Shown: positions 2,693 through 10,981, counted from the first letter of the stretch. The stretch: 64,000 nt of DNA from Microvirga sp. (GCA_036742625.1 DAINQO010000003.1:2478-66477); one strand, 5' to 3'. Made by a program: numbers and translations. Notes: generated by a model not told the origin, from the sequence alone.

Positions 2693-2854
2693 GGCACTGC
2701 GGCCTGCGACCTCCTACCCAACGCCGGGCTCCCGCCGCAGGTGGACGGGCGGGGGCAAGGCGGCGTTCGCGAGACCGATGTCTCCGATCCCTGCCGAAAT
2801 GGCGCTATACGCAGGGGGGCGCGGCGCGAGGGCGCGCCACCGAGGAGCGCATCG

Positions 2855-3646
2855 ATGTCCGCAATGCTTGCCCGCATCCTCAAAGACCCGCGTACCGAGC
2901 GCGTGGTGCTCGGCCTCATCATCTTCAACGCGGTGACGCTAGGCCTCGAGACGAGCCCGAGCGTGATGGCGCGGCACGGGGCGCTGCTCCATGCTCTCGA
3001 CCGGGCGGTCCTGACGGTGTTCGTCGTCGAACTCACGGCGCGGATTTACGTCTTCCGCTGGCACTTCTTCCGCGACCCATGGAGCTTGTTCGACCTGATC
3101 GTGGTCGGCATCGCGCTCGTCCCGGCGACGGGCTCGCTCTCGGTGCTGCGGTCGCTGCGCATCCTGAGGGTGCTGCGCCTCGTCACGGCGGTGCCGTCGC
3201 TGAAGCGGGTGGTCGGCGGGCTCGTCACGGCGCTGCCCGGGATGGGCTCGATCCTGCTCCTGCTTCTCCTCATCTTCTACGTCTTCTCGGTCATGGCCGC
3301 GAAGCTGTTCGGCGCGACGAGCCCGGAGCTGTTCGGACATTTCGGCGCCGCCGCCTACACCCTGTTCCAGGTCATGACCTTCGACGACTGGTCGGCCGGA
3401 ATCGTGAAACCGCTGATGGCGGAGCATCCCTGGGCCTGGCTGTTCTTCGTCGTCTTCATCCTGCTCTCGACCTTCATGGTCCTGAACCTGTTCATCGGCG
3501 TCGTGGTGAGCGCCCTCGACGAGGAGACCGCCAGGGACGCGCCGAAGCTGACGCACCCGGCGGGAAGCGAGGAGCGCGTCCTTGCCGAGCTCGCCGCGCT
3601 CAGAGCCGACATCGCGGCGCTGCGCGAGGAGAAGGCGCAGGCTTGA
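2855..3646 (+). CDS. Voltage-gated ion channel, bacterial NaChBac/BacNaV family (6TM, single domain)
   Basis: Track ORF 2741..3646 trimmed to ATG 2855 (MSAMLARILKD…). S4 carries Arg every third residue (SVLRSLRILRVLRLV). Pore is YTLFQVMTFDDWSAGIVKPLM. C-terminal heptad-like tail is LAELAALRADIAALREEKAQA. Confidence 0.85.
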   Translation: MSAMLARILKDPRTERVVLGLIIFNAVTLGLETSPSVMARHGALLHALDRAVLTVFVVELTARIYVFRWHFFRDPWSLFDLIVVGIALVPATGSLSVLRSLRILRVLRLVTAVPSLKRVVGGLVTALPGMGSILLLLLLIFYVFSVMAAKLFGATSPELFGHFGAAAYTLFQVMTFDDWSAGIVKPLMAEHPWAWLFFVVFILLSTFMVLNLFIGVVVSALDEETARDAPKLTHPAGSEERVLAELAALRADIAALREEKAQA

Positions 3647-3753
3647 GGGGCGGCGAGGCTCCCGAGCCGCGAGCGCACGCTCGACAGCCCTCGCGGCCGC
3701 GCCGCACCCGAGCTGCGACCTCCTGTCCTGGCGGATCGGCACTCTTCGTGCTA

Positions 3754-3768
3754 GAACAAAACAGGAAC
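3754..3768 (+). promoter_or_regulatory. Candidate alphaproteobacterial LexA (SOS) box, GAAC-N7-GAAC
   Basis: GAACaaaacagGAAC at 3754-3768, ending 17 nt upstream of the ATG (3786) of the radical-SAM gene. It matches the direct-repeat GAAC-N7-GAAC / GTTC-N7-GTTC operator described for Rhizobium, Rhodobacter and Caulobacter LexA. Confidence 0.6.
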
Positions 3769-3785
3769 TCAGGCGTTCATGGCTT

Positions 3786-4994
3786 ATGGACGAGAAGCTG
3801 GCGACGAAGCTGCGCATCCTGGCGGACGCCGCGAAATACGACGCCTCCTGCGCCTCCTCCGGGGCGCCGAAGCGCGCCGCCGGCAGGGACGGGCTCGGCT
3901 CGACCTCGAACGGCATCTGCCATGCCTACACGCCGGACGGGCGTTGCGTGTCGCTGCTCAAGATCCTGCTCACCAACTACTGCCTCTACGATTGCGCCTA
4001 CTGCATCAACCGGCGCTCCTCGAACGTGCCGCGGGCACGCTTTGCCGTGCAGGAGGTCGTCGACCTGACGATCGCCTTCTACAAGCGCAACTACATCGAG
4101 GGGCTGTTCCTCTCCTCGGGCATCGTCCGCGACGCCGACCACACGATGGAACAGCTTCTGCTCGTCGCGAAGACGCTCCGCCGCGAGCACGGCTTTGAAG
4201 GCTACATCCACCTCAAGACCATCCCCGAGGCGAGCCCGTGGCTCATCGAGCAGGCGGGCTTGTGGGCCGACCGGCTCTCGATCAATCTCGAGCTGCCGAC
4301 GGATGCGAGCCTGCGGCGCCTGGCGCCGGAGAAGGATGCCGGCTCGATCGGACGCGCCATGGGCCGGATGCGCGAGCGCATCGACGAAGCGCGCGCCGAA
4401 GGCCGGCGCTTCTCGCCCGCCGGGCAGTCGACGCAGCTCGTCGTCGGGGCCGACGAGGCAAGCGACGAGACGGTGCTGCGCAAGAGCGCCTCGCTCTATC
4501 GCGACTACGATCTCAAGCGCATCTACTATTCGGGCTTCAGCCCGATCCCGGACGCAAGCCGGGCCCTCCCCGCGACGGCGCCGCCGCTCCGGCGCGAGCA
4601 CCGGCTCTACCAAGCCGATTGGCTGATGCGGAACTACGCCTTCGCCATCGATGAGGTCGCGGCGGCGACCGATGGCGGCATGCTGCCGCTCGACATCGAC
4701 CCGAAGCTCGCCTGGGCGCTCAAGCATCGCGACCGTTTCCCGGTCGACGTCAACACCGCCGAGCGCGAGATGCTGCTGCGCGTTCCGGGCCTCGGCACCC
4801 GCGCCGTCGAGCGCATCGTCGCGGCGCGCCGGCATTGCCGGTTGCGCCTCGACGACGTCGCCCGCGTCACCGCGAGCCTCAAGCGCGCGCGCCCGTTCCT
4901 GATCGCGGCGGACCACCGCCCGATCGGGCTCACGGACCGGGCCGACCTGCGCCAGCGCCTCGCCGTGCCGCCGAAGCAGCTGAGCCTGTTCTGA
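3786..4994 (+). CDS. Putative DNA modification/repair radical SAM protein (the UDG-linked rSAM family)
   Basis: Track ORF 3582..4994 trimmed to ATG 3786 (MDEKLATKLRILADAAKYDASC…). Cx3Cx2C cluster CLYDCAYC at 3981-4004. C-terminal helix-hairpin-helix (LLRVPGLGTRAVERIVAAR). Its stop overlaps the next start (TGATG at 4992-4996). Confidence 0.85.
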   Translation: MDEKLATKLRILADAAKYDASCASSGAPKRAAGRDGLGSTSNGICHAYTPDGRCVSLLKILLTNYCLYDCAYCINRRSSNVPRARFAVQEVVDLTIAFYKRNYIEGLFLSSGIVRDADHTMEQLLLVAKTLRREHGFEGYIHLKTIPEASPWLIEQAGLWADRLSINLELPTDASLRRLAPEKDAGSIGRAMGRMRERIDEARAEGRRFSPAGQSTQLVVGADEASDETVLRKSASLYRDYDLKRIYYSGFSPIPDASRALPATAPPLRREHRLYQADWLMRNYAFAIDEVAAATDGGMLPLDIDPKLAWALKHRDRFPVDVNTAEREMLLRVPGLGTRAVERIVAARRHCRLRLDDVARVTASLKRARPFLIAADHRPIGLTDRADLRQRLAVPPKQLSLF

Positions 4995-6454
4995 TGCGCA
5001 CGATCCATCTCGCCGAAGGCGCCGATCTCGACGGCTTCCGCCATGCCGTGCGGGCGCTCGTCGCAGAGGGCGTTCCGCCGGACGAGGTCGCGTGGTCGCT
5101 GGCGAGCGCCGCGGGCCTCTTCGCTGCCGTCGCCCCGGGGCTCGCCGACGGCGAGAACCCGGAACCCACGAGCCCAGCGCCGCTCCGCCTCCCCCGCGCC
5201 GTCGCGACCCTCATCGAGAGCATCGTCTGCCACCGCGATCCGGAGCGCTACGCGCTTCTGTACCGGCTCGTCTGGCGCGTGCTGCACGGCGAGCGCGCCT
5301 TGCGCGAGGTCGCCTCCGACCCGTTCGTCCACCGCCTGGAGCTCATGGCGAAGGCGGTGCGGCGCGACATCCACAAGATGCATGCCTTCGTGCGCTTCCG
5401 GCGCACCGCCGGCGAGCCGGAGCGCTATGTCACCTTCTTCGAGCCCGAGCATTTCATCCTTGAGGCCGCGGCGCCGTTCTTCGTCGAGCGCTTTCGGGCG
5501 CTTGACTGGTCGATCCTGACCCCGATCGGCTCGGCGCACTGGAACGGCGAGCGCTTGGCCTTCGGCCTGCCCGGCTGCCGCGCCGACGCGCCGGGGGAGG
5601 ACGCGTTCGAAGCCGGCTGGCGCGGCTATTACGAGAGCACCTTCAACCCGGCCCGGGTGAACCCCGATCTCATGCGGGCGCACATGCCGAAGAAGTACTG
5701 GCAGAACCTGCCCGAGACCGCGGCGATTCCGGGCCTCGTCCGAAGTGCCGCCTCGCGCGTTTCCTCGATGCTGGAGCAGGAGCCGACGATGCCGACGAAA
5801 CGCACCCCGGAGAAGGCGCTCGAGGCGATGCGCGACCGCGAGATCAAGTCGCTGGCGCAGCTCAACAGGCTCCTGAAAGGCTCGGAGCCGCTGGTGAAGG
5901 GAGCGACCCAGGCGGTCCCCGGCGAGGGCCCGGAGGACGCCGAGATCGTGTTCGTCGGCGAGCAGCCGGGCGACCAGGAGGATCTGCAGGGCCGGCCCTT
6001 CGTCGGCCCGGCCGGCAAGGTCTTCGACCGCGCGCTCGGCGACGCCGGGCTCGACCGCGACCGGGTCTATGTCACGAACGCCGTCAAGCACTTCAAGTTC
6101 GAGCAGCGGGGCAAGCGCCGCATCCACGGCAAGCCGACCGCCGGCGAGGTCAAGCACTATCGCTGGTGGCTCGAGAAGGAGCTCGAGCTCATCCGGCCGA
6201 AGCTCGTGGTGGCGCTCGGCGGCACCGCCGTCCTCGCCATGACCGGCAAGTCGATCCCAATCATCCGCGCCCGCGGCCCGGCACATTTCCCCGACGGCTA
6301 TGACGGCTACATCACCGTCCACCCGTCCTACCTCTTGCGCCTGCCCGACGAGGACGCGAAGGCGCAGGCCTACCGCGCCTTCGTCGCCGATATGGCGCGC
6401 GTGCGCGAGATCGCCGCCGATCACCCGCGCGGACGGGTCGCGGCGGCGGAATGA
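4994..6454 (+). CDS. Fusion protein: DUF4130-like 'probable DNA metabolism' domain + UdgX-type family-4-like uracil-DNA glycosylase domain
   Basis: Track ORF 4835..6454 trimmed to ATG 4994 (MRTIHLAEGADLDGF…), translationally coupled to the rSAM gene. C-terminal domain motifs: GEQPG (5957-5971), PFVGPAG, KRRIH (6113-6127), HPSYLLR (6320-6340). Confidence 0.85.
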   Translation: MRTIHLAEGADLDGFRHAVRALVAEGVPPDEVAWSLASAAGLFAAVAPGLADGENPEPTSPAPLRLPRAVATLIESIVCHRDPERYALLYRLVWRVLHGERALREVASDPFVHRLELMAKAVRRDIHKMHAFVRFRRTAGEPERYVTFFEPEHFILEAAAPFFVERFRALDWSILTPIGSAHWNGERLAFGLPGCRADAPGEDAFEAGWRGYYESTFNPARVNPDLMRAHMPKKYWQNLPETAAIPGLVRSAASRVSSMLEQEPTMPTKRTPEKALEAMRDREIKSLAQLNRLLKGSEPLVKGATQAVPGEGPEDAEIVFVGEQPGDQEDLQGRPFVGPAGKVFDRALGDAGLDRDRVYVTNAVKHFKFEQRGKRRIHGKPTAGEVKHYRWWLEKELELIRPKLVVALGGTAVLAMTGKSIPIIRARGPAHFPDGYDGYITVHPSYLLRLPDEDAKAQAYRAFVADMARVREIAADHPRGRVAAAE

Positions 6455-6532
6455 GCTGGGCCAAGCCCCTTGTGCGACGCGCAAGAGCTTCTTAGGGTAG
6501 TTTTACCATAAGCATACGGCCGCTGTTCCGTG

Positions 6533-6916
6533 ATGAGTTCACGAAGGCCCGTCGAATGGATGGGCTCCAGCCTTAAAGACATCCGGGGCTTTCCCGAGGA
6601 GGTCAAAGATGTGCTCGGCTTTGCGATCGGCCTCGCCCAGGAGGGCGGCAAGCACCCGAATGCGAAGCCGCTCGCCGGGGACAAGGCTTTCAAATCCCGA
6701 GGTGTGCTCGAAGTCGTGGCTGACTTCGACGGGAGCACGTACCGCGCAGTGTACACTGTCCGTTTCGCCGCCGCGATTTATGTCCTGGACGAGTTCCAGA
6801 AGAAGTCCAAGAAGGGCATCGCCACGCCGCGGGCCGACATGGAGCGCATCAAAATGCGATTGAGCACCGCGCAAGCGCACTATGACGCAAGCCACGGAGC
6901 AGAGAAGGCAAGATAA
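6533..6916 (+). CDS. Type II toxin, RelE/ParE superfamily (phage Gp49-like / HigB-like)
   Basis: About 127 aa (GTG 6530 or ATG 6533): …WMGSSLKDIRGFPEEVKDVLGFAIGLAQEGGKHPNAKPL…YRAVYTVRFAAAIYVLDEFQKKSKKG. Toxin-first order, 3-nt gap to an XRE antitoxin. Region is visibly less GC-rich than its flanks. Confidence 0.7.
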   Translation: MSSRRPVEWMGSSLKDIRGFPEEVKDVLGFAIGLAQEGGKHPNAKPLAGDKAFKSRGVLEVVADFDGSTYRAVYTVRFAAAIYVLDEFQKKSKKGIATPRADMERIKMRLSTAQAHYDASHGAEKAR

Positions 6917-6919
6917 GAC

Positions 6920-7249
6920 ATGGCCCAGGACGATCTCACGATTACGCGGGGGAGCGATAATGTCTTCGCCGACATCGGCGTAGCCGACGCGGAGGAGCAC
7001 GCGATCAAGGCGCGGGTCGTGATGCTCATCGGGCATTTGATGCAGCAAAAAGGCCTTTCGCAGACTGCGGCTGCGGCGAGGATCAAGATCTCGCAACCAG
7101 ATCTATCCAAGCTGCTGAGAGGACAGTTCCGCGGGTTCTCGCTCGAGCGCCTGCTCGGCTATGCCAGGGCGCTCGGCGCTGACATCGAAATCAAGGCGAA
7201 GGCGGCGAGAGGCGAGCGGGCGGGGCGCATGCGCTTCGTCGAGGCTTGA
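6920..7249 (+). CDS. XRE-family helix-turn-helix antitoxin (HigA-like)
   Basis: 109 aa. HTH segment KGLSQTAAAARIKISQPDLSKLLRG. Directly downstream of the Gp49-like toxin. Confidence 0.75.
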   Translation: MAQDDLTITRGSDNVFADIGVADAEEHAIKARVVMLIGHLMQQKGLSQTAAAARIKISQPDLSKLLRGQFRGFSLERLLGYARALGADIEIKAKAARGERAGRMRFVEA

Positions 7250-9646: not shown

Positions 9647-10981
9647 ATGATGCGCACGCTCGTCTCGCTGGCGTTCGTCGGCATGCTCGGTTCCGCGGCC
9701 TTCGCGCAAGGGGCCGAGAAGTGGGTCACCAGCTGGGCCGCCTCGCCGCAAGGGCCCTACCCGATCGGCAATCCGTCGGTGCAGCCGAACCAGAGCTTCC
9801 ATTTTCCGGCCGCAGCGACCGGTGCGCGGGATCAGTCATTCCGGCTGATCGTCCGCCCGGACATCTGGAGCCGCCAGGTTCGCCTGCGGCTTTCGAACGC
9901 CTTCGGAACGAAGCCCGTCACCTTCGACGGCGCCTTCGTCGGGCTGCAGCTCGGCGCCGCGGCGGTGATGCCGGGCACGAACCAGCCGGTGCGCTTCGGC
10001 GGCCAGGACAGCGTCACCGTAAAACCCGGCGAGTGGGTGTGGAGCGATCCCGTGACGCTGCCCTTCGTGCGCGAGCCGGCCGAGCTGTCCGGCCGCAAGC
10101 TCGCGGTCAGCTTCCACGTCGCCGGCGAGAGCGGGCCGATGACCTGGCACGCCAAGGCCCTGCAGACGTCCTACGTCACGGCGCCGGGCGCCGGCGCGAA
10201 GGGCGCCGTCGAAGAGGAGGCGGCGTTCCCGTTCCCGACCGCATCCTGGTTCTTCCTCGACGCCGTCGACGCGATGGCCGCAGCCGATGCGCAGGCGATC
10301 GTCGCCTTCGGCGATTCGATCACCGACGGCACCGCCTCGACCATGAATGGGGACGACCGCTGGCCGGACGTCCTCGCGCGACGGCTGCGCGCCGCCTACG
10401 GCAACCGCGTCGCGGTGGTGAACGCCGGCATCGGCGGCAACCAGGTCGCCGGCCCGCCCGAATACTCGCCCGAGAAGCCGTTCCCCGGCGGGCCGTCGGC
10501 CGCGGCGCGGCTCGATCGCGACGTCATCGGCCTTTCCGGCATCACGACCTTCATCTGGCTCGAGGGCATCAACGACTTCAGCCGGAACGGCAACGCCGCC
10601 GTCGAGGCGGTCGAGGCCGGCATGCGGGACGGCGTGGCGCGGCTGCGCGCGAAGATACCCGGCATCCGCGTCCTCGGCGCGACCGTCGTGACCGCGCTCG
10701 CCAGCACGAGCGCCGCCCACGGCTTCCCGGAGCAGGACGAGAAGCGCAAGCGCCTCAATGAGTTCATCCGCACGTCCGGCGTGTTCGACGCGGTGCTCGA
10801 CTTCGACCGGGCGACCCTCGACCCGCAGACCGGCGGCCTCAAGCCCGAGTTCGTGCCCGACAGCACCGCCGGCGGCCCCGGCGACAAGCTGCACCCGAAC
10901 CGCGTCGGTTATCTCGCCATCGCGACGTCGATCGACCTCAAGACGCTCCTCGGCAAGGAGCTTCAGCCGGCGACGCGGTAG
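9647..10981 (+). CDS. Secreted SGNH/GDSL-family hydrolase
   Basis: 444 aa. Signal peptide MMRTLVSLAFVGMLGSAAFAQG. GDS block IVAFGDSITDG. C-terminal DKLHPN block. GGGAGGA Shine-Dalgarno upstream. Confidence 0.8.
   Translation: MMRTLVSLAFVGMLGSAAFAQGAEKWVTSWAASPQGPYPIGNPSVQPNQSFHFPAAATGARDQSFRLIVRPDIWSRQVRLRLSNAFGTKPVTFDGAFVGLQLGAAAVMPGTNQPVRFGGQDSVTVKPGEWVWSDPVTLPFVREPAELSGRKLAVSFHVAGESGPMTWHAKALQTSYVTAPGAGAKGAVEEEAAFPFPTASWFFLDAVDAMAAADAQAIVAFGDSITDGTASTMNGDDRWPDVLARRLRAAYGNRVAVVNAGIGGNQVAGPPEYSPEKPFPGGPSAAARLDRDVIGLSGITTFIWLEGINDFSRNGNAAVEAVEAGMRDGVARLRAKIPGIRVLGATVVTALASTSAAHGFPEQDEKRKRLNEFIRTSGVFDAVLDFDRATLDPQTGGLKPEFVPDSTAGGPGDKLHPNRVGYLAIATSIDLKTLLGKELQPATR

Follow-up and report, generated by a model that had tools for sequence, protein, structure and literature searches.

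What does the two-gene operon behind a GAAC-N7-GAAC repeat in Microvirga sp. do, and is it a system that has escaped description? The window, that is, the whole stretch of DNA analysed, covers 64,000 nucleotides (GCA_036742625.1 DAINQO010000003.1:2478-66477). A preliminary description had proposed a LexA-repressed module that joins radical chemistry to a covalently trapping glycosylase domain. The features on which it was built were all found at their coordinates in the sequence and its translations, and are given here together with further sites. Three potentially refuting tests open to sequence analysis, on the positions of the glycosylase motifs, the gene adjacency and the upstream box, did not go against this reading, which is supported.

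3647–3785, + strand: intergenic promoter region of 139 nt, from an ion-channel gene (2741–3646) to the radical-SAM gene (ORF list, Pfam)
3754–3768, + strand: GAAC AAAACAG GAAC direct repeat, predicted LexA operator (sequence, pattern search)
3786–4994, + strand: gene 1, radical-SAM protein, 402 aa, with an ATG in frame at 3786
3849–3947, + strand: candidate second metal or auxiliary-cluster site C22, C45, H46, C54, gene 1 N terminus (alignments)
3981–4004, + strand: CLYDCAYC, the CxxxCxxC motif (C66, C70, C73) of the radical-SAM [4Fe-4S] cluster (translation)
4743–4832, + strand: helix-hairpin-helix, gene 1 C-terminal, residues 320–349 (Pfam HHH_3)
4992–4996, + strand: TGATG stop/start overlap of genes 1 and 2 (sequence)
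4994–6454, + strand: gene 2, 486 aa, fusion of a DUF4130/TIGR03915 domain and a UdgX-family UDG domain (NCBIfam, Pfam)
5024–5719, + strand: TIGR03915/DUF4130 domain, gene 2 residues 11–242 (NCBIfam, Pfam)
5726–6403, + strand: UdgX-family UDG domain, gene 2 residues 245–470 (TIGR03914)
5885–5887, + strand: E298, where other family members have the second Cys of the CxxC Fe-S ligands (65-protein alignment)
5957–5971, + strand: motif A GEQPG, UDG domain, G322–G326
6113–6127, + strand: R-loop KRRIH, UDG domain, K374–H378
6158–6160, + strand: Y389, aligned with Cys ligand C120 of M. smegmatis UdgX (alignment to 6ajo)
6320–6340, + strand: motif B HPSYLLR, UDG domain, H443–R449

The predicted LexA operator

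The repeat at 3754–3768 is perfect, ends 17 nt before the radical-SAM ATG at 3786, as previously described, and has the form of the alphaproteobacterial LexA motif (PMC3323433); the nearest proteins are encoded in genomes of Microvirga, Beijerinckiaceae and Methylobacterium. Taken by itself, the number of such boxes in the window is not significant, with three observed on both strands compared with 1.33 expected, and at least three reached in 18 out of 100 shuffles. The other two copies are clearly non-functional and neither is at a promoter: one (9895–9909) lies within a GDSL-lipase ORF, and the other (258–272) sits at the dctM–dctP junction of a TRAP-transporter operon, overlapping the dctP ribosome-binding site. 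In the 139-nt intergenic region (3647–3785), about 0.003 perfect boxes would be expected. The box lies in an A+T-rich stretch, although the window as a whole has 69.9% G+C, and a simple scan of the same region found no sigma-70 consensus promoter. No lexA or recA gene lies in the window, and neither these nor uvrA supply an internal control box.

The position of the repeat was more informative than its frequency. When we surveyed the region from −120 to +5 of the radical-SAM start in orthologous loci, as the preliminary description had suggested, a perfect GAAC-N7-GAAC or GTTC-N7-GTTC was present in 62 out of 80, compared with a background of 14 in 671,520 nt (0.0026 per equivalent stretch). 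In an alignment of ten sequences with a mean column identity of 43%, the two half-sites alone formed an invariant block ahead of the start codon; the spacers between them differ among loci and the flanks are divergent. Because the same placement is conserved in orthologous loci, the box at 3754–3768 is very unlikely to be a chance occurrence, and we predict that it is an alphaproteobacterial LexA operator.

Orthologous loci in other lineages and arrangements add to this picture. Two of them, one from the betaproteobacterium Rhizobacter and one from an unclassified proteobacterial MAG, carry E. coli-type CTGT-N8-ACAG boxes instead, and no recognisable box was found upstream of the orthologous operons of Xanthomonadales, Opitutus and Longimicrobium. 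In 11 loci of the Bradyrhizobium group, the operon has a promoter region in common with imuA-imuB-dnaE2, and in one Jiella locus the second gene has been split off with a box of its own. PMC8565304 cites reports of SOS regulation of the corresponding COG1573-COG4277 operon for Alphaproteobacteria and Verrucomicrobia, with a prediction for Bacteroidetes, and PMC12392091 lists both the radical-SAM gene and the TIGR03915 gene in the damage response of the LexA-less Moraxellaceae.

A radical-SAM protein and a DUF4130–UDG fusion

The HMM searches of both proteins gave matches well above the cut-offs for TIGR03916, TIGR03915 and TIGR03914. Gene 1 matched the radical-SAM model TIGR03916 over residues 6–393 of 402 (539.6 bits; cut-off 343.5), as well as Pfam Radical_SAM, and near-identical proteins in NCBI MAGs bear the same name as the NCBIfam model. 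The CxxxCxxC motif (C66-x3-C70-x2-C73) is invariant both in 81 sequences of 61–76% identity and in 54 closer ones. The same holds for C22, C45, H46 and C54, which might form a second metal or auxiliary-cluster site. The AF2 model of gene 1 has a mean pLDDT of 67, with low confidence around C22–C54 and values of 84–95 in the helix-hairpin-helix region. This C-terminal element, noted previously, is present at residues 320–349, where HHH_3 just missed its gathering score of 27 (25.2 bits, E 1.8e-5); the top PDB sequence matches of the region were ComEA-related and RuvA chains, with the ComEA-related chain 2duy at E 0.004. Searches for relatives of known structure returned no informative match to gene 1, only generic radical-SAM cores (E >= 1.6e-3; TM about 0.3 by Foldseek on the pLDDT-67 model), and the substrate of the enzyme is therefore a guess. 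A literature search found no biochemical data on any member of this radical-SAM family.

Gene 2, the AF2 model of which has a mean pLDDT of 79, begins with a domain matched by TIGR03915 (204.2 bits; cut-off 112.25) and Pfam DUF4130 (PF13566; 130.2 bits, cut-off 27). This N-terminal part measures about 245 aa rather than the roughly 320 aa given in the preliminary description, as TIGR03915 covers residues 11–242 and the UdgX-family model starts at 245. Across 65 diverse fused proteins, its invariant polar residues are R20, H127, R134, E150, H153, R166, D203, N218, R221 and E241.

The remainder of gene 2 matched the UdgX family model TIGR03914 at 302.1 bits (cut-off 189.95) and scored 119.6 with the family-4 UDG model TIGR00758, under its cut-off of 125.3; NCBI names close homologues 'UdgX family uracil-DNA binding protein'. 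The best PDB match of this domain is M. smegmatis UdgX (E 3e-41), and 30 UdgX entries rank first in Foldseek (TM 0.81–0.88). In the HMMER alignment to 6ajo, the motifs are in register at the UdgX structural positions, as had been surmised from sequence: G322–G326 (GEQPG) falls on G51–G55, with E323/Q324 on E52/Q53; K374–H378 on K105–H109, with H378 on H109; and H443 on H178. HPSYLLR matches the motif B pattern HPS(S/A)(L/V)(L/V)R with Tyr in the S/A place. E323, Q324, D327, N362, H366, R376, H378, H443 and R449 are invariant in the 65 fused proteins, and the R-loop His was kept in 69 out of 69. The UDG domain retains each catalytic position of M. smegmatis UdgX, and its motifs suggest that it could trap DNA covalently.

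The domain departs from UdgX in its iron–sulfur ligands. UdgX was described in its discovery papers as a 4Fe-4S UDG, with ligands that we take from our alignment as C24, C27, H95 and C120 of the M. smegmatis protein. Three of the four are missing here, His (H366) alone being retained, and gene 2 residues 245–486 contain no Cys. The E298 position is Cys in 59 of 65 fused homologues and E, A, G or P in the clade of this locus; that of Y389 is Cys in 59 and Tyr in 6, and UdgX EVVACRPWL aligns with gene 2 EVKHYRWWL. Because the equivalents of C24, C27 and C120 are not Cys, the domain would hold no [4Fe-4S] cluster, and we class it as a putative cluster-free variant of the UdgX family rather than an orthodox UdgX. 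About 90% of fused relatives have kept the ligands. Their loss is a new point of this analysis and the sole unusual trait of this copy. As M. smegmatis UdgX mutated at the Cys ligand C27 is inactive (PMC4787834), the absence of these ligands means that UdgX-like activity of the domain is not to be assumed.

The two proteins are strictly paired. The radical-SAM gene adjoins a TIGR03915 (DUF4130) gene in 76 out of 80 loci, and wherever a UDG match was obtained (69 loci), that domain is fused to DUF4130, so that the adjacency pointed out in the preliminary description is conserved among relatives. The gap between the paired genes is −8 to +106 nt in 66 of 75 orthologous pairs, over half overlapping or abutting (−8 to +3 nt), chiefly by the same one-base overlap. 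The TGATG at 4992–4996, in which the stop of gene 1 overlaps the start of gene 2, follows this usual pattern and indicates translational coupling. We propose complex formation on the basis of the conserved stop/start overlap, the 76/80 adjacency and a reported AlphaFold 3 complex of the radical-SAM and DUF4130 proteins with strict confidence and a narrow channel (bioRxiv 10.64898/2026.08.19.745780). Radical-SAM genes with a stand-alone DUF4130 gene and no UDG domain also exist (L008, L035, L075 and L079), an observation in favour of the radical-SAM/DUF4130 pair as the core and the UDG domain as the accessory; L075 and L079 retain a LexA-type box.

Possible functions of the operon

Taking these sequence features together, we consider it likely that the locus is a LexA-repressed, DNA-damage-inducible operon, the two products of which would form a complex with UdgX-type abasic-site capping. 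DNA damage would trigger RecA-stimulated cleavage of LexA and derepress the operon, and both proteins would assemble stoichiometrically on DNA, probably ssDNA at gaps or stalled forks. There, the UdgX domain would flip out and excise uracil produced by deamination of ssDNA cytosines or put in as dUMP by SOS polymerases. His378 would then capture C1' of the abasic sugar, so that the abasic site would be capped and spared breakage.

Two more speculative readings give the radical-SAM protein a defined part. According to the first, which is conceivable but which we would not expect to hold, the radical-SAM and DUF4130 core would use a 5'-deoxyadenosyl radical on DNA in the DUF4130 channel, with a damaged pyrimidine or the lesion sugar as the target. 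It would process ssDNA lesions beyond the reach of excision repair in a template-independent manner, and the UdgX domain in the fusion would serve as an accessory module that recognises and tethers the lesion, not as the core activity. The second, which is highly doubtful, treats the 'suicide' crosslink of UdgX as a programmed intermediate: uracil would be excised in SOS ssDNA gaps, the radical-SAM/DUF4130 machine would be anchored covalently at the abasic site, and the 5'-deoxyadenosyl radical would then release or convert the His-C1' adduct or a neighbouring lesion. If true, this would constitute a pathway in which radical chemistry deals with ssDNA abasic sites independently of a template, supply both the missing physiological role of UdgX and its turnover mechanism, and make the cluster-free domain of this locus a naturally simplified anchor.

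Among the alternatives to capping by a complex, ordinary SOS-induced base excision repair fares best, although we judge it unlikely. A turnover UDG would remove uracil left by SOS synthesis, with the radical-SAM/DUF4130 part as a loosely coupled helper. The COG1573-COG4277 operon has indeed been cast as a 'UDG-based base excision repair system' (PMC8565304), single H109 substitutions turn UdgX into a turnover glycosylase (PMC4787834, PMC10359453), and the divergence of this lineage from the characterised enzyme is evident from its lost Fe-S ligands. Yet the loop His, the Gln of GEQPG and the R-loop Arg are invariant in the fused proteins (His in 69/69), and the domain passes the UdgX model (302 versus 190) and falls below the family-4 cut-off (119.6 versus 125.3). 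A helper role would also not account for a partner gene that is so strictly paired with, and translationally coupled to, a radical-SAM gene.

Direct reversal of the kind performed by spore photoproduct lyase is a decidedly improbable alternative, in which the radical-SAM enzyme would split a UV pyrimidine adduct and the DUF4130-UDG protein would merely recognise or flip the lesion. Aravind and colleagues grouped the DUF4130 partner with 'SplB-like radical SAM photolyases' (PMC3765255), SOS control and UV exposure are consistent with such a reaction, and the helix-hairpin-helix motif of the radical-SAM protein indicates DNA binding. Arguing against it, no spore photoproduct lyase chain appeared for gene 1 in phmmer and profile searches of PDB sequences (E <= 10) or among the best 50 Foldseek matches, a fold result that is weak given the model pLDDT of 67, and SplB is COG1533, listed apart from COG4277 (PMC8565304). 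The UDG domain retains the full UdgX catalytic set, an argument that it cuts and does not only bind.

Very unlikely, in our view, is a base-modification or mutagenesis system, in which the radical-SAM/DUF4130 part would modify thymine or uracil and the product would be the substrate of the UDG domain. [quoted passage not shown] It is countered by the neighbourhoods, in which no methyltransferase, glycosyltransferase or other modification gene lies beside the pair in the 80 loci and no other neighbour recurs in more than 11; by the PADLOC anti-phage defence models, none of which matched either protein at E <= 0.01; and by the high uracil specificity of M. smegmatis UdgX (PMC4787834, PMC10359453). 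Finally, it is extremely improbable that the GAAC-N7-GAAC repeat arose by chance and that LexA does not control the operon in this organism, for although the window count, the two non-functional copies and the negative promoter scan would fit, the box keeps its position in 62/80 loci despite divergent flanks, non-alphaproteobacterial orthologues carry other LexA motifs appropriate to their lineages, and SOS regulation of orthologues has been reported (PMC8565304).

Comparison with known systems

The characterised protein closest to the UDG domain is M. smegmatis UdgX (PDB 6AIL, 6AJO and others; 43–44% identity, TM 0.81–0.88), with GEQPGD, NAVKHFKF, KRRIH and HPS..LR in register and equivalents of E52, Q53, D56, D59, N91, H109, H178 and R184 all present. 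The R-loop of gene 2 is two residues shorter. A covalent mechanism through H109 has been described for UdgX, together with the proposal that it protects abasic sites (PMC10359453). Mycobacterial udgX is a stand-alone gene without DUF4130 or radical-SAM neighbours and with no Cheo box in the 150 nt upstream examined, whereas gene 2 is fused, paired and placed behind a LexA box; the properties of the stand-alone form may therefore not transfer to the fused one. Family 4 UDGs (Thermus UDGA 1UI0, Thermotoga TM0511) have the same fold (TM about 0.83, 33% identity), but gene 2 has Gln rather than Ala/Gly in motif A and an extra His-bearing loop, and lacks the Fe-S ligands.

SRAP/YedK/HMCES proteins offer a functional analogy only, being damage-response proteins in which a covalent bond shields the abasic site in ssDNA, as may be the case here. 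They share neither fold nor chemistry with UdgX: the SRAP/YedK adduct is a Cys thiazolidine at an abasic site that already exists, and in UdgX a His-C1' bond is coupled to base excision. SRAP and the DUF4130-UDG group have been discussed in one SOS neighbourhood network (PMC3765255). SplB (COG1533) is likewise a radical-SAM enzyme that acts on DNA and belongs to several SOS regulons, but it forms a separate orthologous group without a DUF4130 or UDG partner.

Other bacteria are already on record as having both the gene pair and its SOS control. NCBIfam names the system through TIGR03914, TIGR03915 and TIGR03916, bearing out the mention in the preliminary description of a TIGRFAMs entry for the radical-SAM, DNA-metabolism and UDG domains; with these names and the reported SOS or damage regulation (PMC8565304, PMC12392091), the term 'undescribed system' used there was an overstatement. 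The 'radical SAM-linked UDG' set (the COG1573-COG4277 operon) has the same gene order, fusion, translational coupling and upstream LexA box. Its architecture is identical to that of the Microvirga operon, and what sets this lineage apart is a UDG domain without the Fe-S ligands.

A predicted LexA operator upstream of the radical-SAM gene

The preliminary description reported a direct repeat ending 17 nt before the start of the radical-SAM gene (gene 1), and reading of the sequence bore this out.

Predicted operator of the two-gene operon
3754–3768, + strand: GAAC-N7-GAAC box, GAACAAAACAGGAAC

The in-frame ATG of gene 1 lies at 3786, 17 nt 3′ of the box, and is the start common to the closest orthologues, which open with ATGGACGA. 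Within the window alone the box count is not significant: GAAC-N7-GAAC occurs three times on the two strands against 1.33 expected, and at least three times in 18 of 100 shuffles. For the 139-nt intergenic stretch, the expectation of a perfect box is approximately 0.003. One further copy lies inside a GDSL-lipase ORF; it is taken as a chance match and was rejected as a functional operator. Another, at 258–272 (− strand) in the dctM–dctP junction of a TRAP-transporter operon, overlaps the dctP Shine–Dalgarno sequence and is also best read as chance; the dctP-like gene beside it extends past the window start. The window holds no recA, uvrA or lexA signature, and hence no internal control for the LexA motif. 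A simple scan, which is uninformative for alphaproteobacterial promoters, found neither a sigma-70 consensus nor a plus-strand terminator. There is no obvious Shine–Dalgarno sequence in the 17-nt gap between box and ATG. An inverted repeat, GAAC-N6-GTTC (GAACTCAGGCGTTC), spans 3765–3778, with the 3′ half-site of the box as its left arm and its right end 8 nt before the ATG; it may be fortuitous or may serve as an additional binding site for a protein.

Comparative conservation is the decisive evidence that the predicted operator is more than a chance match. The radical-SAM protein was searched against a single genome for each species, which gave 80 loci at 61–76% identity. In 62 of the 80, a perfect GAAC-N7-GAAC or GTTC-N7-GTTC, the latter being the published alphaproteobacterial LexA motif (PMC3323433), stands at −120 to +5 relative to the orthologous start; the other 671,520 nt of the same loci contain 14 of these boxes, a background of 0.0026 for an equally long stretch. 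A one-mismatch version occupies the same position in three of the 18 loci that lack a perfect box. The two half-sites form the sole invariant block before the start codon in an upstream alignment of ten sequences with a mean column identity of 43%, and the spacer between them is free to vary. These comparisons show a predicted operator that is of the expected type and position and is conserved across orthologues.

Eleven Bradyrhizobium-group loci have the operon divergent from imuA–imuB–dnaE2, with a common intergenic region.

Box shared with imuA–imuB–dnaE2
L056, L059, L061–L063, L068, L070, L072, L073, L077 and L080, about 3820–3990 of each locus: single GTTCATGATATGTTC in the shared 160-nt intergenic region

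In Jiella sp. M17.18 (locus L023), an insertion of approximately 1.7 kb separates the radical-SAM gene from the DUF4130–UdgX gene, and a GTTC-N7-GTTC of its own (GTTCATCTTACGTTC) precedes the latter by approximately 115 nt, at 6841–6855; this suggests that both genes are under selection to stay LexA-controlled. Perfect E. coli-type CTGT-N8-ACAG sites occur at −45 and −17 in two loci from outside the Alphaproteobacteria, one of Rhizobacter and one of an unclassified proteobacterial MAG. Induction by damage is predicted through no fewer than two distinct LexA motifs among the loci analysed here, and the literature adds more motifs and a non-LexA activator. None of the known LexA motifs was recognized upstream of the orthologous operons of Xanthomonadales (L015, L016, L032, L043, L049 and L051), Opitutus (L076) or Longimicrobium (L035).

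Other upstream elements were seen in individual lineages. A GGCACCAT(R)GG-like element lies beside the start codon in three Xanthomonadales loci (L016, L032 and L051) and, in looser form, in the unclassified proteobacterial MAG (L069). Two Rhodospirillales/Acetobacteraceae MAGs (L027 and L028) have a palindrome, GAACAAACGTTC, 13 nt before the radical-SAM start codon; it is of the Gram-positive type GAAC-N4-GTTC, replaces the direct repeat of relatives and may mean that LexA of this lineage recognizes another sequence. In many loci (for example, L009–L012, L044, L066 and L071), the box ends 1–2 nt before the annotated ATG, typically as GAACATATCATGAAC, which leaves no space for a Shine–Dalgarno sequence and suggests leaderless transcripts.

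The radical-SAM and DUF4130 gene pair

Translation of gene 1 confirmed its cysteine motif.

Motif of the radical-SAM protein
3981–4004: CLYDCAYC (CxxxCxxC), gene 1, 402 aa

The C-terminal helix-hairpin-helix (HhH) of the preliminary description was found at residues 320–349, just below the gathering score (Pfam HHH_3, E = 1.8 × 10−5), and the best PDB sequence matches of this region are ComEA and RuvA. Upstream of CxxxCxxC, residues C22, C45, H46 and C54 (window 3849–3947) are invariant in 81 sequences, which suggests a second metal or auxiliary-cluster site; the accessible part of a 2026 preprint on the family (10.64898/2026.08.19.745780) makes no mention of it. When the sequence and an 81-sequence profile were searched against the PDB, all matches were either to HhH proteins or to the loop that binds the cluster in HydG, HydE and ThiH (E > 0.004). 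The AlphaFold2 (AF2) model has a pLDDT of 67, with residues 18–80 below 50, and Foldseek matched it to generic cores only (PFL-activase, viperin, HemN, Elp3 and LIAS; E ≥ 1.6 × 10−3), so the structural searches do not narrow the radical-SAM substrate further.

The stop of gene 1 overlaps the start of gene 2 (TGATG, 4992–4996), as previously described, and the adjacency is conserved: 76 of 80 related loci have DUF4130 downstream of the radical-SAM gene. The intergene gap is −8 to +106 nt in 66 of 75 pairs, over half of which overlap or abut, mostly with the one-base overlap of the window; this points to translational coupling of the pair. Wherever a UDG domain was matched, in 69 loci, it is fused to DUF4130. 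Four loci (L008, L035, L075 and L079) have a stand-alone DUF4130 protein (approximately 275 aa) after the radical-SAM gene and no UDG domain in the locus, and two of these four keep the LexA box. The UDG domain is thus not obligatory for the pair, which identifies the radical-SAM and DUF4130 proteins as the conserved, predicted SOS-controlled core and UdgX as a frequent accessory. Clustering the flanking ORFs of the 80 loci revealed no third conserved gene, save for the lineage-specific imuA–imuB–dnaE2 of Bradyrhizobium.

The surroundings in the window are ordinary chromosomal genes (TRAP transporter, ion channel, Gp49/HTH toxin–antitoxin pair, PBP1A, lipase and PHB depolymerase). PADLOC defence-system models matched neither protein, and in PHROGs the sole phage match was to DNA polymerases of phages, through their UDG domain. 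The toxin–antitoxin pair (6530–7249) starts 76 nt downstream of the operon, with no terminator predicted between them.

Toxin–antitoxin pair downstream of the operon
6530–6916, same strand as the operon: Gp49-like (DUF891, RelE/ParE-type) toxin gene
6920–7249, same strand as the operon: HTH_37/XRE antitoxin gene

A UdgX-type domain without cysteine ligands for an iron–sulfur cluster

HMM searches placed both proteins in the expected families, as radical-SAM-linked UDG and DUF4130 models matched above their cut-offs. In the 486-aa gene 2 product, TIGR03915/DUF4130 covers residues 11–242 and TIGR03914, whose current name is ‘UdgX family uracil-DNA binding protein’, covers residues 245–470, both far over cut-off. 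The N-terminal domain is accordingly approximately 245 aa long, rather than the roughly 320 aa first described. The family-4 UDG model scored under its cut-off. Near-identical and close NCBI MAG proteins (Beijerinckiaceae, Microvirga) already bear these family names. All three motifs described for the UDG domain were recovered on translation.

Motifs of the UDG domain of gene 2
5957–5971: GEQPG
6113–6127: KRRIH
6320–6340: HPSYLLR

In a HMMER search of the PDB, Mycobacterium smegmatis UdgX ranked first (E = 3 × 10−41) and aligned in register, with GEQPG in place and the histidine of KRRIH, H378, on the H109 through which UdgX links covalently to the abasic site.

Residues of the gene 2 product aligned with M. 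smegmatis UdgX (HMMER)
G322–D327: G51–D56
N362: N91
K374–H378: K105–H109, loop of the gene 2 product shorter by two residues
H443–R449: H178–R184

All 69 proteins compared keep the loop histidine, and no substitution occurs at E323, Q324, D327, N362, H366, R376, H378, H443 or R449 in a set of 65 diverse fused proteins. The AF2 model (mean pLDDT 79) matched 30 UdgX entries first (TM 0.81–0.88, 43–44% identity) and then family-4 UDGs (33% identity). By alignment, the predicted UdgX catalytic set of the domain is complete.

In M. smegmatis, UdgX carries a 4Fe-4S cluster that it needs, and a C27 mutant is inactive (PMC4787834). By contrast, the domain in the lineage of the window lacks the cysteine ligands. 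The UdgX-type domain (5726–6403) contains no cysteine at all, and hence cannot bind a [4Fe-4S] cluster. Positions 298 (5885–5887) and 389 (6158–6160) are E and Y in the window and cysteine in 59 of 65 fused relatives (approximately 90%); they are non-cysteine throughout the clade of the window (Methylobacterium, Microvirga, Acidocella, Hyphomicrobium and one MAG), which in the 65-protein alignment comprises the window and five of the loci L001–L006. CxxC was found in none of 120 close homologues. Among the best 150 of 708 strong representative clusters, roughly 14–21 are free of the Fe–S cluster and 91 have the full ligand set. Despite the missing ligands, the UDG domain is still modelled confidently, with pLDDT above 90 save for the R-loop. 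We therefore regard it as a cluster-free variant whose activity is putative. Such a domain should purify easily under air and offers a test of whether crosslinking needs the Fe–S cluster.

Proposed function and relation to known systems

The observation is confirmed, and its interpretation as a LexA-repressed module that couples radical chemistry to a putatively covalently trapping glycosylase is supported. In the mechanism we propose, LexA would repress the operon and DNA damage would derepress it; the radical-SAM and gene 2 proteins would form a complex on DNA, and the UdgX domain would excise uracil and cap the abasic site through His378. More speculatively, the radical-SAM/DUF4130 core might direct radical chemistry at a single-stranded DNA lesion, a setting in which excision repair is without a template, with UdgX as a lesion-finding and tethering accessory. 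In the 2026 preprint, an AlphaFold 3 complex of DUF4130 and the radical-SAM protein reached strict confidence, and its narrow channel suggests single-stranded nucleic acid (10.64898/2026.08.19.745780).

Ordinary base-excision repair is a rival reading, and one carried by the name of the two-gene COG1573–COG4277 ‘UDG base excision repair’ operon (PMC8565304). DNA modification or mutagenesis is another: the association of DUF4130, radical-SAM and UDG was noted earlier, and thymine modification was guessed (PMC3765255). Direct reversal resembling that of spore photoproduct lyase (SPL) is a third; Foldseek with the pLDDT-67 model did not recover SPL. The last is a box that matches by chance, against which its conservation among orthologues speaks.

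The preliminary description named the system as the best candidate for an undescribed one, but it is a catalogued ‘known unknown’, and SOS control of the gene pair is already in the literature. According to PMC8565304, which cites Erill 2016 and da Rocha 2008, SOS regulation of COG1573–COG4277 had already been reported for Verrucomicrobia and Alphaproteobacteria; the primary papers on Caulobacter (PMC2238201) and Verrucomicrobia (PMC4951493) are represented here through that account. SOS regulation is also predicted in Bacteroidetes (PMC8565304), and in LexA-less Moraxellaceae radical-SAM and TIGR03915 damage-response genes are activated by DdaA (PMC12392091). The physiological role of UdgX is called ‘largely unknown’ in the enzymology papers, with abasic-site protection proposed (including PMC4787834 and PMC10359453). 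‘Radical’ is absent from the UdgX papers searched, these two included, as are ‘operon’, ‘fused’ and ‘fusion’ where searched, and our literature search returned no paper with both ‘UdgX’ and ‘radical SAM’. Conversely, the LexA-regulated ‘UDG base-excision’ operon is listed with its radical-SAM partner and its crosslinking type is not noted (PMC8565304). UdgX enzymology and SOS comparative genomics thus appear to be two literatures not yet joined.

The characterized mycobacterial UdgX differs in its setting from the window operon. In three Mycolicibacterium loci (L081–L083), udgX is a stand-alone gene, with no radical-SAM/DUF4130 gene within 6 kb, no DNA-repair partner nearby and, in contrast to the LexA-type box of the window operon, no Cheo box among the 150 nt that precede it. 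It is flanked by an alpha/beta-hydrolase gene and, on the opposite side, by a MarR-family regulator or Orn/Lys/Arg decarboxylase gene; a catalase gene lies just past the hydrolase gene in two of the three. Judged by gene content and upstream boxes, most UdgX relatives are DUF4130 fusions with a putatively DNA-binding radical-SAM partner and a predicted damage switch. This fused, SOS-controlled context provides a concrete, testable setting for UdgX function, and also for a widespread radical-SAM family that has been uncharacterized ever since its cataloguing. As a new member, the locus is typical of its class and no discovery in itself, the cluster-free UdgX domain being its sole distinctive feature. 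Its value is that it joins UdgX enzymology to the SOS-regulated radical-SAM/DUF4130 context and offers a convenient experimental variant.
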